IMG/VR virus record: IMGVR_UViG_3300005844_000013
Strand: one strand, 5' to 3'
DNA: 46,324 nucleotides
DNA from: a virus
Position 1 is the stretch's first letter, and each line of letters begins with the position of its first letter. Shown piece after piece: positions 5,011 through 46,324 of the stretch. The position numbers were made by a program, and so were the translations under genes. The notes beneath the pieces were generated by a model. That model was not told the DNA's origin. It searched no databases and worked only from the letters and a program-made list of their open reading frames with translations.

Positions 5011-5694
5011 TTACGCTGCTTTTGTGAGAACGATTTCGCCGATGATCTCGCGGTGGAGGCACCCGAACTTCTCGCCGTCCGACACCACATCGCCATAGAG
5101 AGCCACAACCCACACACGCTCGCCTTGCCACTTCTCGGGCTGCATCGTGGCGTGCAGCGTTCCTTTGTGGCACAGGCTCAGGGGGCCTGCGGTCTTCTGG
5201 ATGAGTCCCGGCGCGGCCACTTCTGTAGCACGGCCGCCGTTTGCGGGCTTGCCGAGCGTGTTGGATCGCCAGAACGCCAACACCGTCGCCTCGCGTTCCG
5301 CATTGGCGAGACGGCTCCGGATCGGCTCCGGCCATGATTCGCGCGACGCGAGGTACAACGAGCGCCAATAGCCGTCGCCGGAGCCGTAGCCGTAGCCGTA
5401 GCCGTCGCCGTAGCCGTCGCCGTAGCCGTAGCCGTAGCCGGAGCCGGAGCCGTCGCCGTAGCCGTAGCCGTAGCCGTCGCCGTAGCCGGAGCCGGAGCCG
5501 TAGCCGGAGCCGGAGCCGGAGCCGGAGCCGTCGCCGTAGCCGTAGCCGGAGCCGTCGCCGGAGCCGTAGCCGTAGCCGGAGCCGGAGCCGTCGCCGTAGC
5601 CGGAGCCGTCGCCGTAGCCGGAGCCGGAGCCGTCGCCGTAGCCGACTTGGGCATTCGCCCAAGTCGGCAGTTCACCACGGATTACCCGTTCCAC
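5011..5694 (-). CDS. Gly-X dipeptide-repeat protein: short N-terminus, 46 x (Gly-Tyr/Ser/Asp), C-terminal ~115-aa Cys/His-containing domain
   Basis: Track ORF 5011..5856 trimmed to GTG 5694, which has GGGAGG 8 nt upstream. This is the only frame that continues from the repeat into a complex, protein-like C-terminal domain (..LCHKGTLHATMQPEKWQGERVWVVALYGDVV..FGCLHREIIGEI). Confidence 0.65.
   Translation of the reverse strand: MERVIRGELPTWANAQVGYGDGSGSGYGDGSGYGDGSGSGYGYGSGDGSGYGYGDGSGSGSGSGYGSGSGYGDGYGYGYGDGSGSGYGYGYGDGYGDGYGYGYGSGDGYWRSLYLASRESWPEPIRSRLANAEREATVLAFWRSNTLGKPANGGRATEVAAPGLIQKTAGPLSLCHKGTLHATMQPEKWQGERVWVVALYGDVVSDGEKFGCLHREIIGEIVLTKAA
5368..5643. repeat. Hexanucleotide array, 46 units of GCCGNN (+ strand; NN = TA, TC or GA)
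   Basis: Read directly: gccgta/gccgtc/gccgga units with no interruption. Several frames on both strands are open across it: GYGDGS, RLRLRR and ATATAP on the - strand, SRSRSR on the + strand. Confidence 0.95.
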
Positions 5695-5975
5695 GGCGCA
5701 GCCTCCCACTTCGTAACGGCTTCCGGCGAAACTTCGAGAACGGCGGTGATGTCGCGTAGTTCGATGTCGGCAGGCGGACCAATCTTGCAGTTGCTGTTCG
5801 GTCCGACCGACGCGAGCCCCATGAAGCCGCGCAGATCCGCCGACCAGTAGACGCACAGCCGCGCGCGTTTCAGTTTGATGGTTGCGCCAGACGTGTCCTC
5901 CGCGAAACCGAAGAACACTCCTTTGTGGGCGGTGGTGACGATGACGGGACGCTCGGAAGATTTCTTGGTGACCAT
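5682..5975 (-). CDS. Hypothetical protein
   Basis: 97-aa ORF with AGGAGGAAAGA directly before ATG 5975. Its 3' end overlaps GTG 5694 of the repeat protein by 13 nt. Confidence 0.65.
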   Translation of the reverse strand: MVTKKSSERPVIVTTAHKGVFFGFAEDTSGATIKLKRARLCVYWSADLRGFMGLASVGPNSNCKIGPPADIELRDITAVLEVSPEAVTKWEAAPWNG

Positions 5976-9896: not shown

Positions 9897-9925
9897 AACA
9901 TACATTCGGGGGTACGAATAGTCAA
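9897..9925 (-). promoter_or_regulatory. Leftward sigma70-type promoter: TTGACT-17 nt-TATGTT
   Basis: -35 at 9925..9920 and -10 at 9902..9897 on the - strand. ATG 9889 begins 7 nt after the -10. The dyad ATTCG-N6-CGAAT (9904..9919) fills the spacer. Confidence 0.55.
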
Positions 9926-9939
9926 GATGTATTTTGGGG

Positions 9940-9968
9940 TTGCCAAAAGAAACTTTCGGACTTACGAT
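9940..9968 (+). promoter_or_regulatory. Rightward sigma70-type promoter: TTGCCA-17 nt-TACGAT
   Basis: -35 at 9940..9945 and -10 at 9963..9968. ATG 9976 begins 7 nt after the -10. The imperfect dyad CCAAAAG-aaa-CTTTCGG (9943..9959) lies in the spacer. Confidence 0.55.
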
Positions 9969-10345: not shown

Positions 10346-10537
10346 ATGTCCAGTATTGAACCACAAGTCAGATTCCGTGTCGAGATCACCGTGCAGTCGT
10401 TCGATGGTCAGACGCCCAACGATGAGCGCAGAATCATCTACCTTCAGGAAGTCGAGACCTACCTCCCCGTCGCCCAGGTGATCGCCGCCGTCAACAGTTT
10501 CGAACTCGCCGAGACGACGGCGCCGGAGGTGGGATGA
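10346..10537 (+). CDS. Hypothetical protein (63 aa)
   Basis: AAGGAGG 8 nt upstream of ATG 10346. The stop overlaps the ATG of the next gene (ATGA). Confidence 0.65.
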   Translation: MSSIEPQVRFRVEITVQSFDGQTPNDERRIIYLQEVETYLPVAQVIAAVNSFELAETTAPEVG

Positions 10538-11463
10538 GATCCGAGGCGCTCGCAACTCTCGGCCACGCGCACACGATCGCAGCGGAGTACGACGGCAACC
10601 TCACCGTTCGCCAGCTCTACTACCAGCTCGTCGCGCAGGGGTTCATTCCTAACAGCCAGAAGTCCTATCAGCGAATCGTTTCAATCTTGACGGACGCGCG
10701 GCTCAGCGGAGACTTCCCGTTCGAGTGGCTGATCGATCGAACGCGCGAGGCGCGCCCCGGAAGGTTCGTAGGTAATCAGGATGACGTTGACGATGCGCTG
10801 TCCAGCGCGGCCGATGATCTACGACGGGCGCCGGAGGCGTGGCTGCATCGTGCTCGATGGTACGGACAGCCGACGCACGTTTCCGTGTGGGTCGAAAAAG
10901 AAGCCCTCATGGGCGTGTTCGAGGCGCCATGCGAACGTCTCGGCGTCGCGTGGTTTGTCCTGCGCGGCTACTCCTCGCTGTCGGCGCTGTCGCAGTGGGT
11001 CGACAACACGGCTGAGGCGTGCAGTGAGGGCGACGTCAGGGAAGCGGTCGTCCTCTACTTCGGCGACCACGATCCGGACGGGTGGGAGATCCCGCGCAGC
11101 GCTGAGCGAAACGTCGAGGCCATCGCCCGCGTGCGCGGCATCGATCTGCCGCCCGTGACGTTCGAGCGCGTCGCGCTGCTCGGCGATCAGATCCGGCGAT
11201 TCAAGCCGCCACCGTTCCCGGCGAAGGAGACCAGCTCCCGTTTCGAGTCGTACGTGCGCGAGCACGGGATGACGAACGCATGGGAGCTCGACGCACTCCG
11301 CCCCGACGTGCTTCAAAAGCTGATCGTTGACGGCGTCGAGGCACACTTCGACGAATCAATCCACGAGGAAAATAGCGAGACCATCGCAGAGGCACGAACG
11401 GCGATGCGGGCAAGGATGCAAAAGCCTGCATGGATCAAGGGCGTGCTCGGAGCCGACCAATGA
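10534..11463 (+). CDS. Spo11/topoisomerase-VI-subunit-A-like protein (winged-helix 5Y-CAP plus Toprim)
   Basis: 309 aa. Motifs LTVRQLYYQLV (candidate catalytic Tyr), VWVEKEALMGVF (Toprim Glu) and LYFGDHDPDGWEI (Toprim DxD), in Topo VI-A order. Confidence 0.6.
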   Translation: MRSEALATLGHAHTIAAEYDGNLTVRQLYYQLVAQGFIPNSQKSYQRIVSILTDARLSGDFPFEWLIDRTREARPGRFVGNQDDVDDALSSAADDLRRAPEAWLHRARWYGQPTHVSVWVEKEALMGVFEAPCERLGVAWFVLRGYSSLSALSQWVDNTAEACSEGDVREAVVLYFGDHDPDGWEIPRSAERNVEAIARVRGIDLPPVTFERVALLGDQIRRFKPPPFPAKETSSRFESYVREHGMTNAWELDALRPDVLQKLIVDGVEAHFDESIHEENSETIAEARTAMRARMQKPAWIKGVLGADQ

Positions 11464-12383
11464 CCGCCGCCCTCCTACCCGGCGTCCACCCCAACATCCC
11501 CGCCGCGGAGTACCACGCCGACCCATGCTCCGAACCTTCGTTGACCAGCTCGGGGATCAAAACGCTCCTGAGTGAGTCGCCCGCTGCGTTTGCGTCGCGC
11601 CATCCGAAACTCACGCAATGGCCTGAACTGCTTGACGAGTCCTCGAAGGCGAAAGATTTCGGCACCATCGTCCATTCGCTCGTGCTCGGAGTCGGCGCAG
11701 GATTCCACGCGTGCGACCCCAAGGACTGCCCCGCGCGCACGAAGAAGGGCGACCCGTACAAAAGCTGGGCGTACGGAGCGGCCGAATGGAAGGAAGAGCA
11801 GGAAGAGAAGGGCATCATCATCATGAGCCGCAAGGAAGGCGCGCGCGTCCAGTCCGCGGCCGAGTCCATGATCCGCTTGCTGCGCGACGAATACGGCGAC
11901 TGGCCAATCGGCGACTCGGAAGTCACGCTCGTTTGGCAGCGCGATACCTCGCTCGGACCTATCTGGTGCCGGGCACGCGCTGACCATCTGGCGCTGCGGC
12001 ACATGGTGGTGCTGGACCCGAAGTCCACCGGCCGGGGCATCAGCGACCGCATGCTTCAGAAGATGGCCGCGGATGACGGCTGGCACATTCAGGCGGCGTG
12101 GTACCTGGAAGCGGTGGAAGCGACGCATCCGGACGTTGACCTCGCCGGCCGCCTCACCTTCCGCTTTCCCGTCGTCGAGATGGCCCCGCCGTACCAGGCG
12201 CGCTTCGTTGATCTGCCAGAAGCGTGGATTCACATCGCGCGGCAGCGGAACGACCGCGCGGCGGAGCTGTTCGCGAAGTGCCTTGCGGCGAACGACTGGC
12301 CCGCGTACGCGCCGGTCTGCTCTCCGGAGCCGCCGACGTGGATGCTCACCGAATTTGAAGCTGAGGAGATGCGCGATGTGTAG
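11460..12383 (+). CDS. PD-(D/E)XK exonuclease, RecE/exonuclease VIII-like
   Basis: 307 aa from ATG 11460 (ATGA overlap). Motifs AEYHADPCSEPSLTSSGIKTLL, RADHL...VVLDPKS and QAAWY, in the order typical of the RecE-type PDDEXK domain. Confidence 0.8.
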   Translation: MTAALLPGVHPNIPAAEYHADPCSEPSLTSSGIKTLLSESPAAFASRHPKLTQWPELLDESSKAKDFGTIVHSLVLGVGAGFHACDPKDCPARTKKGDPYKSWAYGAAEWKEEQEEKGIIIMSRKEGARVQSAAESMIRLLRDEYGDWPIGDSEVTLVWQRDTSLGPIWCRARADHLALRHMVVLDPKSTGRGISDRMLQKMAADDGWHIQAAWYLEAVEATHPDVDLAGRLTFRFPVVEMAPPYQARFVDLPEAWIHIARQRNDRAAELFAKCLAANDWPAYAPVCSPEPPTWMLTEFEAEEMRDV

Positions 12384-12636
12384 CGACGATTTCAGCGGGA
12401 CAACAGACGAGTACAGCGCCCGAATGGGAGCCGAAGCCGCTGCAAAGGCGAGCAGTAAATTCAACGACGAAATGTGTGAGCACATGCGCGCCCTCGTTCA
12501 GTACTGCGAGGCCGTCGGCGTCATCTTCGGTGGATGTGGTGATTGCGGTTCGCCATGGCTGACGTGCTCCCATTGCGAGCAGACGGTGGATGACGCTGCC
12601 GAAGTATTCGCGCGCTCCGAGAAGGCCGCGTCATGA
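12376..12636 (+). CDS. Cys-rich hypothetical protein (GGCGDCGSPWLTCSHCEQ zinc-ribbon-like)
   Basis: 86 aa from ATG 12376, the tail of track ORF 12073..12636. Overlaps both neighbours. Confidence 0.6.
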   Translation: MCSDDFSGTTDEYSARMGAEAAAKASSKFNDEMCEHMRALVQYCEAVGVIFGGCGDCGSPWLTCSHCEQTVDDAAEVFARSEKAAS

Positions 12637-13655
12637 AGCTCCCCGATCGCACATTCACCACCGTCCACGCCGAACCAGGACCGCGCCCGCTGTGGGTTGG
12701 ACTATTCGGCCCGAGCGGTGGCGGCAAGACGTTCTCCGCGCTTCTCCTGGCGAAGGGCATTCAGTCCGTCGTCGGCGGGCGAATCAACTTCATCGACACG
12801 GAGTCCGGCCGCGGGCTCCACTACGCGGATCTCTTCGATTACGACTACACGCCGCTTCCGCCGCCTCACGGCTCGCTCGATTACCTCGCCGCCATCACAC
12901 ATGCCGTGAAGGGCAAAGGCGCGCGTATCGTCATCGTGGACAGCCTGAGCCATGAGCACGACGGCGAAGGCGGGATGATCGAATTCCAAGAGCGCGAGAT
13001 GGAGCGTCTGTCAGGTGGCGATTGGCAGAAGGCCGAGCGCGTCAAGATGCTCGCGTGGACGAAGCCGAAGGCCGCGCGCAAGCAACTCCTGCGCGGCATG
13101 CTGGCATTCGGGACGGACGCCGTTTTCATCCTTTGCTTCCGCGCCGATGAGCAATCCAAGCCGGTGAAGAAGGGCGACAAAACGGAAGTCATTCAGATGG
13201 GCTTCATGCCGATCGCCGGCAAACCGTTCGTGTACGAGGCTACAGTGTGCGCTCTGTTGATGCCAGGCGCGAACGGGGTGCCGACGTGGAATCCGGAGAA
13301 CGTCGGCGAGAAGCTGATGCGCAAGCTCCCCGAGCAGTTCAAAAAGATGTTTGCCGCAACAGAAGGGAAGCCGCTCAGCGAGGAGCATGGTCGCCTGATG
13401 GCCGAATGGGCGAAGGGCGGGGTGGCCGGCAAACCGCCGCGCCAGTCCCCTCCCCCGCCAACGGACAAGACGCTCGCCCAACGTGTCGACGCCGCAATCG
13501 AGAAGCTCGCGGAGAAGAACACGCACGCCGGCGTCAACGGCGTGTGGAAGGCGACCGAGGATCTGCGCGCCGAACTTGCCGACGCCCAAGAGGGCGCGCT
13601 GCTCGACAAACTGGTTGGGGCCAGAGACGATCGTCTTCGCGAGATTTCCAAATGA
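12633..13655 (+). CDS. Sak4-like / AAA_24-type RecA-fold ATPase (recombination mediator)
   Basis: 340 aa. Walker A GPSGGGKT and Walker B RIVIVDSLSHEHDG. Sits next to the exonuclease, as in phage recombination modules. Confidence 0.75.
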   Translation: MKLPDRTFTTVHAEPGPRPLWVGLFGPSGGGKTFSALLLAKGIQSVVGGRINFIDTESGRGLHYADLFDYDYTPLPPPHGSLDYLAAITHAVKGKGARIVIVDSLSHEHDGEGGMIEFQEREMERLSGGDWQKAERVKMLAWTKPKAARKQLLRGMLAFGTDAVFILCFRADEQSKPVKKGDKTEVIQMGFMPIAGKPFVYEATVCALLMPGANGVPTWNPENVGEKLMRKLPEQFKKMFAATEGKPLSEEHGRLMAEWAKGGVAGKPPRQSPPPPTDKTLAQRVDAAIEKLAEKNTHAGVNGVWKATEDLRAELADAQEGALLDKLVGARDDRLREISK

Positions 13656-15291: not shown

Positions 15292-15572
15292 TGCCCTGCG
15301 AAAGCATCCGTGTTGGTGACATCGTGACGATCGCATGCTCGCGCGGGAAAGCGCAACCGCGTGCTTGCCAGTTCTGCCGCGTGAAACTCTTCGCTGGCGG
15401 TCTGCTCTGCGACTTCGCGATCCCCGCGAACAAGAGCGGCACGTGCGACGCGTTCATGTGTCGGAAGTGCGCAAAACGCGTCGGCGACAATCGCGACTAC
15501 TGCCCGCCTCACGCGAAGATGCGTGACCCAAAGACGGGATGCGAGCCGGGCTGCGCCTGTGCGGAGGGATGA
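15291..15572 (+). CDS. Cys-rich hypothetical protein (93 aa)
   Basis: AAGGAGAG upstream of ATG 15291, with a TGATG overlap to the previous stop. 11 Cys residues. Confidence 0.6.
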
Positions 15573-16138
15573 TGACCACCTACATCGGCATCGACGTAGG
15601 CCTTGACGGAGCGATAGCGGCGATCTGTGACGGCGAGTTAGGGCCGTTGCTCTTTCCGATGCCCACGTTCACCGTGGAGTCGCGACGGAGCGGCGGGAAG
15701 AAGCACCGCGTGATGGACGCTGCGGGAGTGATGGATACCATCGAAACGTTGCGCCTGCATCAGCGTGATATACACGTCTTGATCGAGACCGCCCAACTCC
15801 GCCCCGCCATGATCGCGAGCGGCCACGTCTGCCCACGATGCGGCAAGGAACACATGTTCGCTGGGCAGGGACTCGCATCGCAGGCCGAATTCATCGGGCA
15901 ATTCCGCGAGATTCGCGGCATTCTGCGCGGGCTCGGCATCCCGTTCGATGAGGTTCATCCTGCGACGTGGAAGAAAGACGTATTCCACGGACGCAGCGAG
16001 AAGATGGACGCGCGCATTCTAGCGGGCCAACTCTACCCCTCCGTCGCTCCGAAAATGGCACTCAAAAAGAACGACGGATTGGCAGAGGCACTTTTGATCG
16101 CTGATTACCTGAAGCGGCACCGCACGGCGCCCTTCTGA
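15569..16138 (+). CDS. RuvC-like Holliday-junction resolvase with an inserted CxxC zinc ribbon
   Basis: 189 aa from ATG 15569 (ATGA overlap). Motifs [18 protein letters not shown] and [15 protein letters not shown] in RuvC-fold order. Insert [10 protein letters not shown]. Confidence 0.75.
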
Positions 16139-18689: not shown

Positions 18690-20108
18690 TCACCGGATCG
18701 TGATCGCCTTCGCCGCCACCGGCACGCTCGCCGTCACGCTCACCGTGAACGTCCCCGCCGAGCCGTAGATGTGCTGACCGGTGCGGGAACACAACGTGGT
18801 GAACGTCGGCGACGAATCGCCGAACCGCCAGACGCAATTCCCGCCAATCGGCGGCTGCACCTGGAAGAACATGAACGCGCCGACCATCGGATTGCTCAGG
18901 GGGTCAACCACGATCGCGGCGGCAGACGTTGGGACGGGAACGGGGACCGGAACCGGCACTGGCGCTGGCTGCGGGGCTGGCTGAGGCACCGGCGCCGGTT
19001 GGGGGCATGGGCACATCGGGACTGGCGTGGACGCGGGCGTGAGTACCGCCTGGGGCTGCGGTGCGGGCACAGGAACCGGCGCGGCGACGATCTCGTAAAC
19101 GTCCGTCAGTCCGATCGCGGCGGCGACGAGGTACACCTTCCCGCCCGTCGCGAAGATCGCCACATCGCAGCCGAGCCCCAAAGTGTCGAGTCCCGACTGC
19201 GCCGGCGTGGCGAAGGTCTTGTCCGGATTGCGGGAGTAGTAGAGGCGGAAGAACCCGCCGAGTGGGACCTCGCTGCCATCCGAGCGGAAGAGGCGGAGGT
19301 CGGCCCCGAGACCATCCCTTCGCTGGCCGTAGATGGCGGTGTAGCCCTCACCTGTCGAGACTCCAGGGAGGAAGTACGCGTCGAGCAACGAGGCGAGGGC
19401 CGCCGGCGCGTTGCGGCTCGTATCCGGCGGGACCGGTCCCGGCAGCGCATCAACGCGGTCGACCCCATCAGGCCTCATGCGGTAGCGCGCCGTGCCGCCG
19501 CCGTCCGATGAGGCGATGGCGAAGTAGACGCCTCCGATTTTGACGGCGCGGATCGCGGTCGCCACCGGATCCCCGGTGATGGTGCTCGACGGGACGATGG
19601 CGATCGGCTGGAGGTTCGTCCCGAGGAATGCCGTGCCCATCATCGTGGCCGCGACGTAGACGACGCCGCGATCGTCGATGTCGACCTCCTGCAGCGGCTC
19701 GCGGACGTCGACCCCGGGCTGTGGCAACCACCAACCCTGATCCGGACCGAGCATCAGCTCGCGACTCGCAGTGTTGCGCACCGTCCACGTCATCTGCTCG
19801 CCGGACGCCATCCGTTGCAGGAGCCGCGAGAGCTTGTAGTCCCCGATCGCGGAGCCGAAGCCGATGACGATCGTGTCGAGCGGCACGGACACGCGGACAC
19901 GGCGGCCACGCATGGCAGACGGCCCCATGACGCCCTCGGGGGTGTCGTGCGAGTCGAGCACGCGGCCGACAAAGCGGAGGGTTGGAGGGACGGCTACGGT
20001 GCGTCGGCCGTCAGCGGTGTTCGCGCCCGGTTTGGGCCATGGCTGGCCGTTGACCTGGAGAGCAACGAAAAGAAAGAGGATCGTGGTGACGAATCGAAGT
20101 TTCTTCAT
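18690..20108 (-). CDS. Secreted protein: signal peptide, repeat-rich beta (propeller-like) region, Pro-rich linker, C-terminal PKD-like domain
   Basis: 472 aa from ATG 20108. Signal peptide MKKLRFVTTILFLFVALQVNGQ. Linker PVPVPAPQPQ...PAPVPVPVPVPVP. PKD-like CVWRFGDSSP...HIYGSAGTFTVSVTA. Confidence 0.7.
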   Translation of the reverse strand: MKKLRFVTTILFLFVALQVNGQPWPKPGANTADGRRTVAVPPTLRFVGRVLDSHDTPEGVMGPSAMRGRRVRVSVPLDTIVIGFGSAIGDYKLSRLLQRMASGEQMTWTVRNTASRELMLGPDQGWWLPQPGVDVREPLQEVDIDDRGVVYVAATMMGTAFLGTNLQPIAIVPSSTITGDPVATAIRAVKIGGVYFAIASSDGGGTARYRMRPDGVDRVDALPGPVPPDTSRNAPAALASLLDAYFLPGVSTGEGYTAIYGQRRDGLGADLRLFRSDGSEVPLGGFFRLYYSRNPDKTFATPAQSGLDTLGLGCDVAIFATGGKVYLVAAAIGLTDVYEIVAAPVPVPAPQPQAVLTPASTPVPMCPCPQPAPVPQPAPQPAPVPVPVPVPVPTSAAAIVVDPLSNPMVGAFMFFQVQPPIGGNCVWRFGDSSPTFTTLCSRTGQHIYGSAGTFTVSVTASVPVAAKAITIR

Positions 20109-20121
20109 CGGCGCCGAGTGT

Positions 20122-20149
20122 AACAAAAACGCCGCCCTTTCGAGCGGCG
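20122..20149 (-). terminator. Intrinsic terminator 13 nt upstream of the start codon of 18690..20108
   Basis: On the - strand: CGCCGCUC-GAAA-GGGCGGCG. That is an 8-bp stem with a GNRA tetraloop, followed by TTTTTGTT. Same design as the terminator at 16560..16594. Confidence 0.65.
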
Positions 20150-46151: not shown

Positions 46152-46324
46152 AACAACTCTTCCGCCCCGAAGTGAACACCTACTTCCGCTGCATCATCCC
46201 GCCGCGGGCTGGCGAATCCTTCCTCATCGAAATTGACGATCGCGCGAACGTCGTGATCGCCGCGCACGTGAGTGGATTTCGCCGCCCGCTCGGGCTCACC
46301 GTGAAGGGCGCGCGGGAGATCGCC
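46148..46324 (+). CDS. 5' part of the junction-spanning 69-codon hypothetical gene (continues at nt 101..133 after circularisation)
   Basis: GTG 46148 overlaps the upstream stop (GTGA). The frame is open to the window end. The full product is VKQLFRPEVNTYFRCIIPPRAGESFLIEIDDRANVVIAAHVSGFRRPLGLTVKGAREIAAIAGWREVER. Confidence 0.55.
   Translation, partial: MKQLFRPEVNTYFRCIIPPRAGESFLIEIDDRANVVIAAHVSGFRRPLGLTVKGAREIA
46225..46324. repeat. Terminal direct repeat, right copy (identical to 1..100)
   Basis: Letter-for-letter identical to nt 1-100. Confidence 0.97.

Follow-up and report, generated by a model that had tools for sequence, protein, structure and literature searches.

The window analysed here, a viral DNA record of 46,324 nucleotides (IMG/VR record IMGVR_UViG_3300005844_000013), carries a 309-residue open reading frame (ORF) which is almost certainly a member of the published Topo mini-A (Mini-A) family, a group of viral proteins related to the cleavage subunit of topoisomerase VI (Topo VI-A) and to the meiotic double-strand-break protein Spo11. 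The best explanation for the protein is that it acts on its own—as an autonomous DNA-breaking, and possibly resealing, enzyme—within the replication and recombination module of a phage, and this is probably correct. The predicted active-site residues are invariant among its homologues, its profile aligns with that of Topo VI-A far better than shuffled controls do, and neither its own genome nor the neighbourhoods of its relatives offers it a conserved partner.

Membership of the Topo mini-A family

Topo mini-A was named by Takahashi, Da Cunha, Krupovic, Mayer, Forterre and Gadelle (NAR Genom Bioinform 2019/2020; PMC7671362). The paper describes hundreds of proteins of about 300 residues, from bacterial and archaeal viruses, which consist only of truncated 5Y-CAP and Toprim domains. 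Their signatures are an RxxY/FY tyrosine motif, a glutamate and a DxDxxG motif, and a B subunit is not found nearby. A C-terminal T2BI box, xWELDAL, is said to be sufficient to distinguish them from Topo VI and Topo VIII, in which the box is of the RAEQQSL type and RVELNAM, respectively. The same paper reports that PSI-BLAST and phylogeny independently linked Mini-A to Topo VI-A and Spo11.

The 309-residue protein agrees with this description in its length, in RQLYY at residues 26–30, in E121 and D178-H-D180-P-D-G183, and in AWELDAL; it is encoded by a viral genome and lacks a GHKL/Bergerat ATPase partner. In PHROGs it matches phrog_6247, ‘DNA topoisomerase’, over its whole length (E 2.2e-67), while Pfam (E ≤ 1) and NCBIfam give no match. 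At the protein level nothing sets it apart from the family as described there: size, domains, motifs, viral origin and the absence of a B subunit are the same, and its homologues occur in Pseudomonas, Salmonella and other phages, as they do for the known family.

The family is very large. A word-indexed search returned more than 6,000 homologues; an exhaustive profile search returned 10,176 clusters at 50% identity with E ≤ 1e-3, 1,528 of them with E ≤ 1e-30; and at least 564 loci in IMG/VR carry relatives. With tblastn, homologues at 33–38% identity were found in 78 cultured-phage records. These include Pseudomonas phages PaMx25, NP1 and JG012, Xylella phages Sano and Salvo, cyanophage Pam3, and phages of Stenotrophomonas, Salmonella, Roseobacter, Flavobacterium and Microbacterium, and several of the homologues are already annotated ‘DNA topoisomerase’ or ‘DNA topoisomerase VI’. 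The ORF is not, then, a new kind of protein, since the family was published in 2019, has an entry in PHROGs and carries annotations in dozens of cultured phages. A first-pass annotation of the window, made from the sequence alone, had implied that such a stand-alone enzyme was new to phage replication systems; this does not hold, the more so as an initiator role has already been proposed for the Mini-A of skuldviruses. The interest that remains lies in the function of a very large Spo11-related viral family, one whose members occur in archaeal viruses as well as in phages that infect pathogens, and which is central to debates on the origin of type IIB topoisomerases and of Spo11.

Conserved motifs and the predicted active site

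The gene and its motifs, with the evidence for each, are as follows.

10534–11463, plus strand: Topo mini-A gene, 309 residues (ORF without internal stop; phrog_6247; hhalign against Topo VI-A; AlphaFold2 model)
10603–10623, plus strand: 5Y-CAP motif T24-V-R26-Q-L-Y29-Y30, TVRQLYY (conserved in homologues; aligned to Topo VI-A)
10735–10746, plus strand: D68-R-T-R71 motif, in the loop that follows the CAP helices (conserved in both alignments)
10885–10905, plus strand: first Toprim motif, VWVEKEA, with E121 (conserved; aligned to Topo VI-A)
11059–11082, plus strand: Toprim DxD motif, FGDHDPDG, with D178 and D180 (conserved; aligned to Topo VI-A; local JetD match)
11278–11298, plus strand: T2BI box, AWELDAL, residues 249–255 (conserved; box as defined in PMC7671362)

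Conservation was assessed in two alignments, A1 with 45 homologues (47–76% identity to the query) and A2 with a second set of 50 (32–74% identity). T24, R26, Y30, E121, K122, D178, D180 and G183 are invariant in both, as is A124 of VWVEKEA, and Y29 is conserved in at least 90% of homologues. The T2BI box is invariant from A249 to L255 in A1, and E251, D253 and A254 remain invariant in the wider A2. The first-pass annotation had read a tyrosine pair, a Toprim glutamate and a DxD motif in the canonical order: their coordinates were verified, their spacing is canonical when set against Topo VI-A, and the conservation check that it proposed finds the tyrosine, glutamate and aspartates unchanged in homologues down to 32% identity. 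On this comparison of sequences, the presence of R26/Y30, E121 and D178/D180 in the ORF is not a matter of chance.

The catalytic tyrosine is predicted to be Y30, with R26 as its partner arginine. E121 is predicted to serve both as general acid/base and as metal ligand, and D178 and D180 of the DxDxxG motif are predicted Mg2+ ligands. In the full-length AlphaFold2 model (predicted local distance difference test, pLDDT, 93; predicted template modelling score, pTM, 0.84) the E121 motif lies at the end of a strand spanning residues 114–120, and the beta-alpha-beta order of Toprim secondary structure is visible in the models. Of the DRTR motif, D68 and R71 do not vary in either alignment, nor does R69 in A1. 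The motif does not figure among the signatures discussed in the sections of PMC7671362 used here; it may contact DNA.

Relation to Topo VI-A and Spo11

The relationship to Topo VI-A was examined by hhalign comparison of deep profiles, built from 113 diverse Mini-A sequences and from 123 Topo VI-A sequences (PDB alignments plus a homologue search). The local alignment (P 2.9e-5, probability 74%) reaches past the generic Toprim core and covers a Topo VI-A-specific segment, ‘GVTPqDIxxYxLPxxPLK / vALxxDQIxxYnPPPfPAK’. The global alignment (P 1.7e-5) spans 244 columns and holds the tyrosine, glutamate and DxD motifs in register. Controls scored much lower: against 43.9 for the real profiles, 40 column-shuffled alignments gave 17.1 ± 3.7 (maximum 29.5), a distance of about 7 standard deviations, and the reversed alignment gave 13.1. 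An earlier, shallow comparison with four PDB-derived fragments of Topo VI-A and Spo11 had also placed the motifs in register, with a probability of only 2.4%. The signature positions correspond as follows.

Arginine and catalytic tyrosine: R26/Y30 in Mini-A, R99/Y103 (REAYY) in Methanocaldococcus-type Topo VI-A
Toprim glutamate: E121 in Mini-A, E197 (IET) in Methanocaldococcus-type Topo VI-A
DxD: D178/D180 in Mini-A, D249/D251 (DGDPYG) in Methanocaldococcus-type Topo VI-A
T2BI glutamate: E251 in Mini-A, E340 in Methanocaldococcus-type Topo VI-A

All four are collinear and similarly spaced in the two proteins. Homology of Mini-A to Topo VI-A and Spo11 at the level of the superfamily is well supported by these profiles, and the first-pass description of the protein as a stand-alone Topo VI-A/Spo11 homologue is borne out by a P of about 2e-5 against far lower-scoring shuffled controls. 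The global alignment begins at about Topo VI-A residue 68, which indicates that the N-terminal CAP segment of some 70 residues is missing from Mini-A. Because this segment and the B subunit are both absent, and because the query falls below the curated Pfam thresholds of PF04406 (TP6A_N) and PF21180, Mini-A lies outside Topo VI-A/Spo11 proper.

Proposed chemistry and role

The set of residues with which Topo VI-A and Spo11 carry out Mg2+-dependent tyrosine transesterification is invariant in Mini-A, and the ATPase is absent. By analogy with those enzymes, it is likely that Mini-A cleaves DNA by the same tyrosine/Mg2+ chemistry. The protein, probably a dimer as in the chemistry of Topo VI-A and Spo11, would use Tyr30, positioned by Arg26, to attack a DNA phosphodiester, with Mg2+ held at a Toprim site formed by Glu121, Asp178 and Asp180. 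The product would be a 5′ end linked to the protein through a phosphotyrosyl bond, together with a free 3′-OH. A 5′-phosphotyrosyl link with a free 3′-OH is also the polarity of HUH rolling-circle initiators. Classical type II strand passage would be impossible for such an enzyme since there is no ATP-driven gate. The break—whether a nick or a double-strand break—would provide a 3′-OH or DNA ends to the host polymerase, and a co-expressed RecE-like exonuclease, a RecA-fold ATPase and RuvC would then set up rolling-circle or recombination-dependent replication.

That Mini-A is the break-maker which starts replication or recombination is a tentative proposal, possible but on the doubtful side. 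It draws on the content of the genome, where, among 71 ORFs, none but Mini-A can be recognised as a candidate for starting replication. Searches of these ORFs against PHROGs and Pfam (E ≤ 1e-3) found no DNA polymerase, primase, replicative helicase, loader, Rep-type initiator or integrase; nor did they find a GHKL ATPase or Topo VI-B, so that the lack of such a partner, already noted in the first-pass annotation, extends to the whole genome. Many of the 71 ORFs have no PHROGs or Pfam match at all, and for this reason one of them might still encode a novel initiator. The proposal also draws on the neighbours of Mini-A in 80 viral loci which, where they can be assigned, are genes of DNA replication and recombination and regulators. 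A precedent exists in the skuldviruses, whose describers proposed an initiator role for Mini-A because it is their sole recognisable replication gene.

In its most specific form, the proposal makes Mini-A the phage counterpart of Spo11: partner-independent, programmed, protein-linked breaks in the phage's own DNA would start recombination-dependent or rolling-circle replication, as the sole phage-encoded initiation function in this genome, and the break would be passed to the RecE-like exonuclease, the RecA-fold ATPase and RuvC. So complete a scheme is rather improbable. The phage is nevertheless a clean natural case for the replication-starter hypothesis, with a complete genome, a lone candidate and coupling to recombination enzymes.

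Neighbourhoods of other Mini-A genes

The gene neighbourhoods of homologues were surveyed in 80 of the IMG/VR loci, of which there are at least 564. Tallied by PHROG, the immediate neighbours on the same strand are not dominated by any one family. The assigned neighbours are DNA polymerases, helicases, primase, RecE-like, Sak4-like and Erf-like proteins, single-stranded DNA-binding protein (SSB), resolvase, ligase, and regulators or excisionases, with no structural or lysis genes among them. When the 4,163 ORFs lying within ±4 kb were clustered by all-against-all BLAST, no family reached beyond 8 of the 81 loci, or beyond 5 of 67 Mini-A lineages. When jackhmmer was run with the neighbour proteins of the present phage against 82 loci, it returned essentially its own contig only. 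The small ORFs which often overlap Mini-A starts are mutually unrelated. A scan of genome contigs with the single Mini-A protein, which was too specific, gave one weak and irrelevant locus.

Even Mini-A proteins 61–74% identical to this one occupy quite different contexts:

followed by small ORFs and an HNH gene
on its own next to a 1,842-residue ddrB-ParB protein
between a VapE-like primase and a 717-residue PDDEXK nuclease, a DEAD helicase and Pol A
followed by a Thg1-like gene that adjoins a portal gene
upstream of DnaB

Among cultured phages, PaMx25 has a Sak4-like gene as the next gene after Mini-A and a Cas4-type exonuclease close by; Salvo, Bhz60 and Pam3 lack this arrangement. Coupling of Mini-A to a RecE-like exonuclease was not seen in the other loci examined, and the ATGA coupling to this exonuclease is specific to the present lineage. 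The functional weight which the first-pass annotation had placed on the neighbouring 63-residue ORF, RecE, Sak4 and RuvC genes is accordingly not supported, as that neighbourhood is conserved neither around the 61–74% identical proteins nor across the 80 viral loci, and the survey of homologues which it had suggested yields no conserved partner. Because contexts differ and partners are not conserved, Mini-A is a single-gene cassette in the early or DNA-metabolism regions of unrelated phages. It has no detectable obligatory partner (a ‘Mini-B’), which extends the published statement that there is none. The survey thus sets two constraints on any mechanism for Mini-A: mobility as a single cassette, and the lack of a conserved Mini-B.

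Two contigs from other assemblies, both in ENA, are of note. On ERZ25039550 contig_95056 (46.6 kb; locus L089, 1156–6684), a 72% identical Mini-A is divergent from the 1,842-residue ddrB-ParB gene. On ERZ27298648 contig k119_410728 (377 kb; locus L088, 8001–14417), a 47% identical Mini-A (P0118) lies directly upstream of cas3-like (DEAD), cas5d and cas7 genes; this contig also has PARP-like, RNA-ligase and NAD-dependent DNA-ligase genes, and could represent either a jumbo phage or a megaplasmid that carries type I-C CRISPR-Cas.

Alternative explanations

Several observations weigh against the proposed role, or against the assignment on which it is built. The literature to February 2026 contains no biochemical or genetic data on any Mini-A. 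Origin-like iterons or repeats were not found in or beside the gene. A protein linked to the 5′ end would be expected to block a RecE-type 5′–3′ exonuclease unless it were removed, so that a simple relay, in which Mini-A cuts and RecE resects, is not straightforward. Many Mini-A phages (PaMx25 and the P0048 contig are examples) have their own primase, helicase or polymerase, and Mini-A is therefore not a universal initiator; nor is its recombination-gene neighbourhood conserved. As to the assignment, matches to the Pfam models of Topo VI-A stay below threshold, with 2 of 45 members touching PF21180 at a best E of 0.029. Foldseek, which the first-pass annotation had named as a check, did not recover Topo VI-A, Spo11 or JetD among the top 50 PDB matches, whether the query was the full model (pLDDT 93) or a model of the Toprim and C-terminal part (pLDDT 96.7). 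Nor were these three retrieved when the full model was searched against BFVD, and hidden Markov model searches of PDB sequences, with the single sequence or with the family profile, did not find Topo VI-A. What Foldseek returns are weak Toprim matches (RecR, the small Toprim protein 2I5R and primase Toprim domains) and generic Rossmann-like folds.

These null results, with the absence of Pfam and NCBIfam matches and the low probability of the shallow hhalign comparison, are what would be expected if the likeness to Topo VI-A and Spo11 were convergent or a coincidence of motifs, and the protein a Toprim enzyme with an unrelated N-terminal helical domain, in a primase-like or RecR-like role for example. 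This is very improbable in view of the deeper-profile P value and its distance from the shuffled controls, the extension of the local match into the Topo VI-A-specific segment beyond the Toprim core, the near-identical spacing of four collinear motifs, and the agreement of the published PSI-BLAST and phylogeny. If homology is accepted, a Mini-A dimer might instead be an ATP-independent topoisomerase which cuts and reseals in order to relax, decatenate or unknot replicating or packaged phage DNA. Its homology with the subunit that cleaves DNA in a genuine topoisomerase, the conservation of a T2BI box thought to regulate cleavage, the location of the gene in replication modules and the label ‘DNA topoisomerase’ in PHROGs and GenBank all speak for this. 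The database labels, however, reflect transfer by homology, and type IIB strand passage requires the ATPase gate of the B subunit as well as the N-terminal part of CAP to which that subunit is bound. GHKL proteins are absent from the genome, this part of CAP is missing from Mini-A, and no conserved partner is available to replace the B subunit; a topoisomerase is unlikely.

A further possibility is that Mini-A is a hydrolytic Toprim conflict nuclease, similar to JetD/MksG or OLD, which cuts host, rival-phage or plasmid DNA as a selfish, defence or counter-defence cassette. The behaviour of the gene fits this in part, as a single cassette moves among unrelated backbones and proteins 61–74% identical have different neighbours and no conserved partner; one homologue even stands directly upstream of cas3/cas5/cas7 on the 377-kb contig. 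PADLOC finds a local JetD match at the DxD motif (E 8e-4), and Foldseek shows at most a generic Toprim or Rossmann-like fold. The JetD match, however, spans just 26 residues (171–196), and a purely hydrolytic Toprim nuclease would have no need of the invariant tyrosine and arginine. JetABC, an OLD-type ATPase and other defence partners are absent from the genome, and the assigned neighbours of Mini-A are replication and recombination genes and regulators, not defence islands. A conflict nuclease is, on balance, decidedly unlikely, and an autonomous DNA-breaking enzyme of the replication and recombination module remains the preferred reading.

Comparison with known systems

Among other members of its family, this copy is distinguished by its origin in an uncultured phage of about 46 kb without a recognisable replisome or initiator, and by its coupling to a RecE-like exonuclease. 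Topo VI-A (Top6A; PDB 1D3Y, 2Q2E, 2ZBK) shares with Mini-A the collinear arginine/tyrosine, Toprim glutamate, DxD and T2BI-type box. Mini-A, in contrast, is shorter by about 70 N-terminal residues and so lacks the part of CAP that binds Top6B; it is viral and not chromosomal, and has no Top6B/GHKL partner. Spo11 (PDB 8URQ) has the same catalytic motifs, and the analogy suggests that Mini-A may break DNA rather than pass strands; in this phage it adjoins recombination genes. Spo11, however, operates together with a B-like subunit that is degenerate (Top6BL/Rec102-Rec104) and with numerous accessory factors, whereas Mini-A has no conserved partner.

Topo VIII (Gadelle et al. 2014), a plasmid-borne type IIB enzyme, is confined to mobile elements and has catalytic residues in common with Mini-A. 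It differs in having B and A moieties, fused or split, of which the former is a GHKL ATPase, and in its RVELNAM box; Mini-A has no ATPase and a WELDAL box. JetD/MksG, the Topo VI-A-like Toprim nucleases of the Wadjet/Mks plasmid-defence systems, resemble the picture proposed for Mini-A in their DxD motif and in cleavage without GHKL. JetD acts with the JetABC SMC complex, which is absent here, and the likeness is limited to the 26 residues given above. JetD is not known to have a catalytic tyrosine, a residue that is invariant in Mini-A. With the HUH rolling-circle initiators there is a functional analogy only—a tyrosine 5′ link and a 3′-OH primer, in the role proposed for skuldvirus Mini-A. 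The fold and metal site of Mini-A are unrelated to theirs, and a repeat resembling a double-strand origin was not found beside the Mini-A gene.

The operon around the gene

Gene orientation in the window switches at a divergent intergenic region at about 9.9 kb, and Mini-A belongs to the rightward operon that starts there. The other features of this region are as follows.

9897–9968, no strand assigned: back-to-back sigma-70-like promoter matches (two sites against 1.3 expected; suggestive)
10346–10537, plus strand: 63-residue ORF, ATGA-coupled to Mini-A (overlap and ribosome-binding site; gene call)
11460–12383, plus strand: RecE-like PD-(D/E)XK exonuclease (phrog_412, exonuclease VIII, E 2.7e-51; Pfam DUF3799, E 2.3e-8; PDDEXK_1, E 6e-5)
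12633–13655, plus strand: P-loop, RecA-fold-like ATPase (phrog_1366, E 5e-44)
15572–16138, plus strand: RuvC-like Holliday-junction resolvase, 188 residues (phrog_1770, E 3.8e-21)

The ATGA overlap between the stop of the 63-residue ORF and the Mini-A start, reported in the first-pass annotation, was confirmed, with a GGAGGTG ribosome-binding site just 5′ of it. The Mini-A stop in turn overlaps, again as ATGA, the start of the RecE-like exonuclease gene at 11460, so that this gene does follow Mini-A directly, as had been claimed. After the exonuclease come an 86-residue ORF, the phrog_1366 ATPase, several small ORFs and the RuvC-like resolvase, and Mini-A can be said to head a recombination block in this phage. 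The identity of the RuvC-like resolvase was confirmed; it lies some 4 kb downstream of Mini-A with several ORFs between. The 63-residue ORF has no family match and is unrelated to the small ORFs upstream of other Mini-A genes; it is confined to this lineage and is not a conserved partner of Mini-A.

The ATPase had been called Sak4-like. That it is a P-loop ATPase stands; the Sak4 label is weak, with AAA_24 at E 2.6e-4 (below the Pfam cut-off) and BLASTP against the Sak4 of PaMx25 at E 0.005. A UvsX-like match has E 0.003, matches to RecA chains have E 0.2–0.7, and phrog_1366 itself has no function assigned in PHROGs. The gene possibly encodes a Sak4-type annealing protein, for which these matches are weak support.

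The phage genome

Bases 1–100 of the window are identical to bases 46225–46324, which indicates that the assembly closes into a circle of about 46,224 bp; the window is probably a complete phage genome. Near-identical contigs of 46.3–46.4 kb with an identical Mini-A protein are present in other assemblies. The genome encodes a large terminase, an endolysin, depolymerase-type tail domains, a Dam methylase and Arc and helix-turn-helix (HTH) regulators. No SMC-like, kleisin, JetABC, OLD-type ATPase or other defence partner genes were found in it. One ORF matches ‘partition protein ATPase’ families (phrog_795, E 1.9e-13; phrog_2685), a match that hints at a plasmid-like prophage lifestyle; a scan for Walker motifs failed to locate the ORF behind it.

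The phage has no cultured relative, as a tblastn search with the large terminase against cultured phages came back empty. In a megablast search with the first 25 kb, the sole match to a cultured phage was a stretch of 65 bp at 10600–10664, 85% identical to Xylella phage Salvo, which encodes the LTVRQLYYQ active-site helix of Mini-A.

The hexamer TAGCCG is repeated in 46 tandem copies at 5369–5644, within an ORF at 5011–5856 on the minus strand. Read on that strand, the array encodes a stretch of about 90 residues rich in Gly, Tyr, Ser and Asp (GYGDGSGSGYG...) in a 281-residue protein without a family match.

An ORF at 130–375 on the minus strand carries the C-terminal domain of a K1 capsule lyase (PF24146, E 4e-13). 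A phage depolymerase C-terminal domain is matched elsewhere in the genome, and a 478-residue ORF at 18690–20126, also on the minus strand, has a PKD domain. Together, the capsule-lyase, depolymerase and PKD domains suggest that the host is an encapsulated bacterium.

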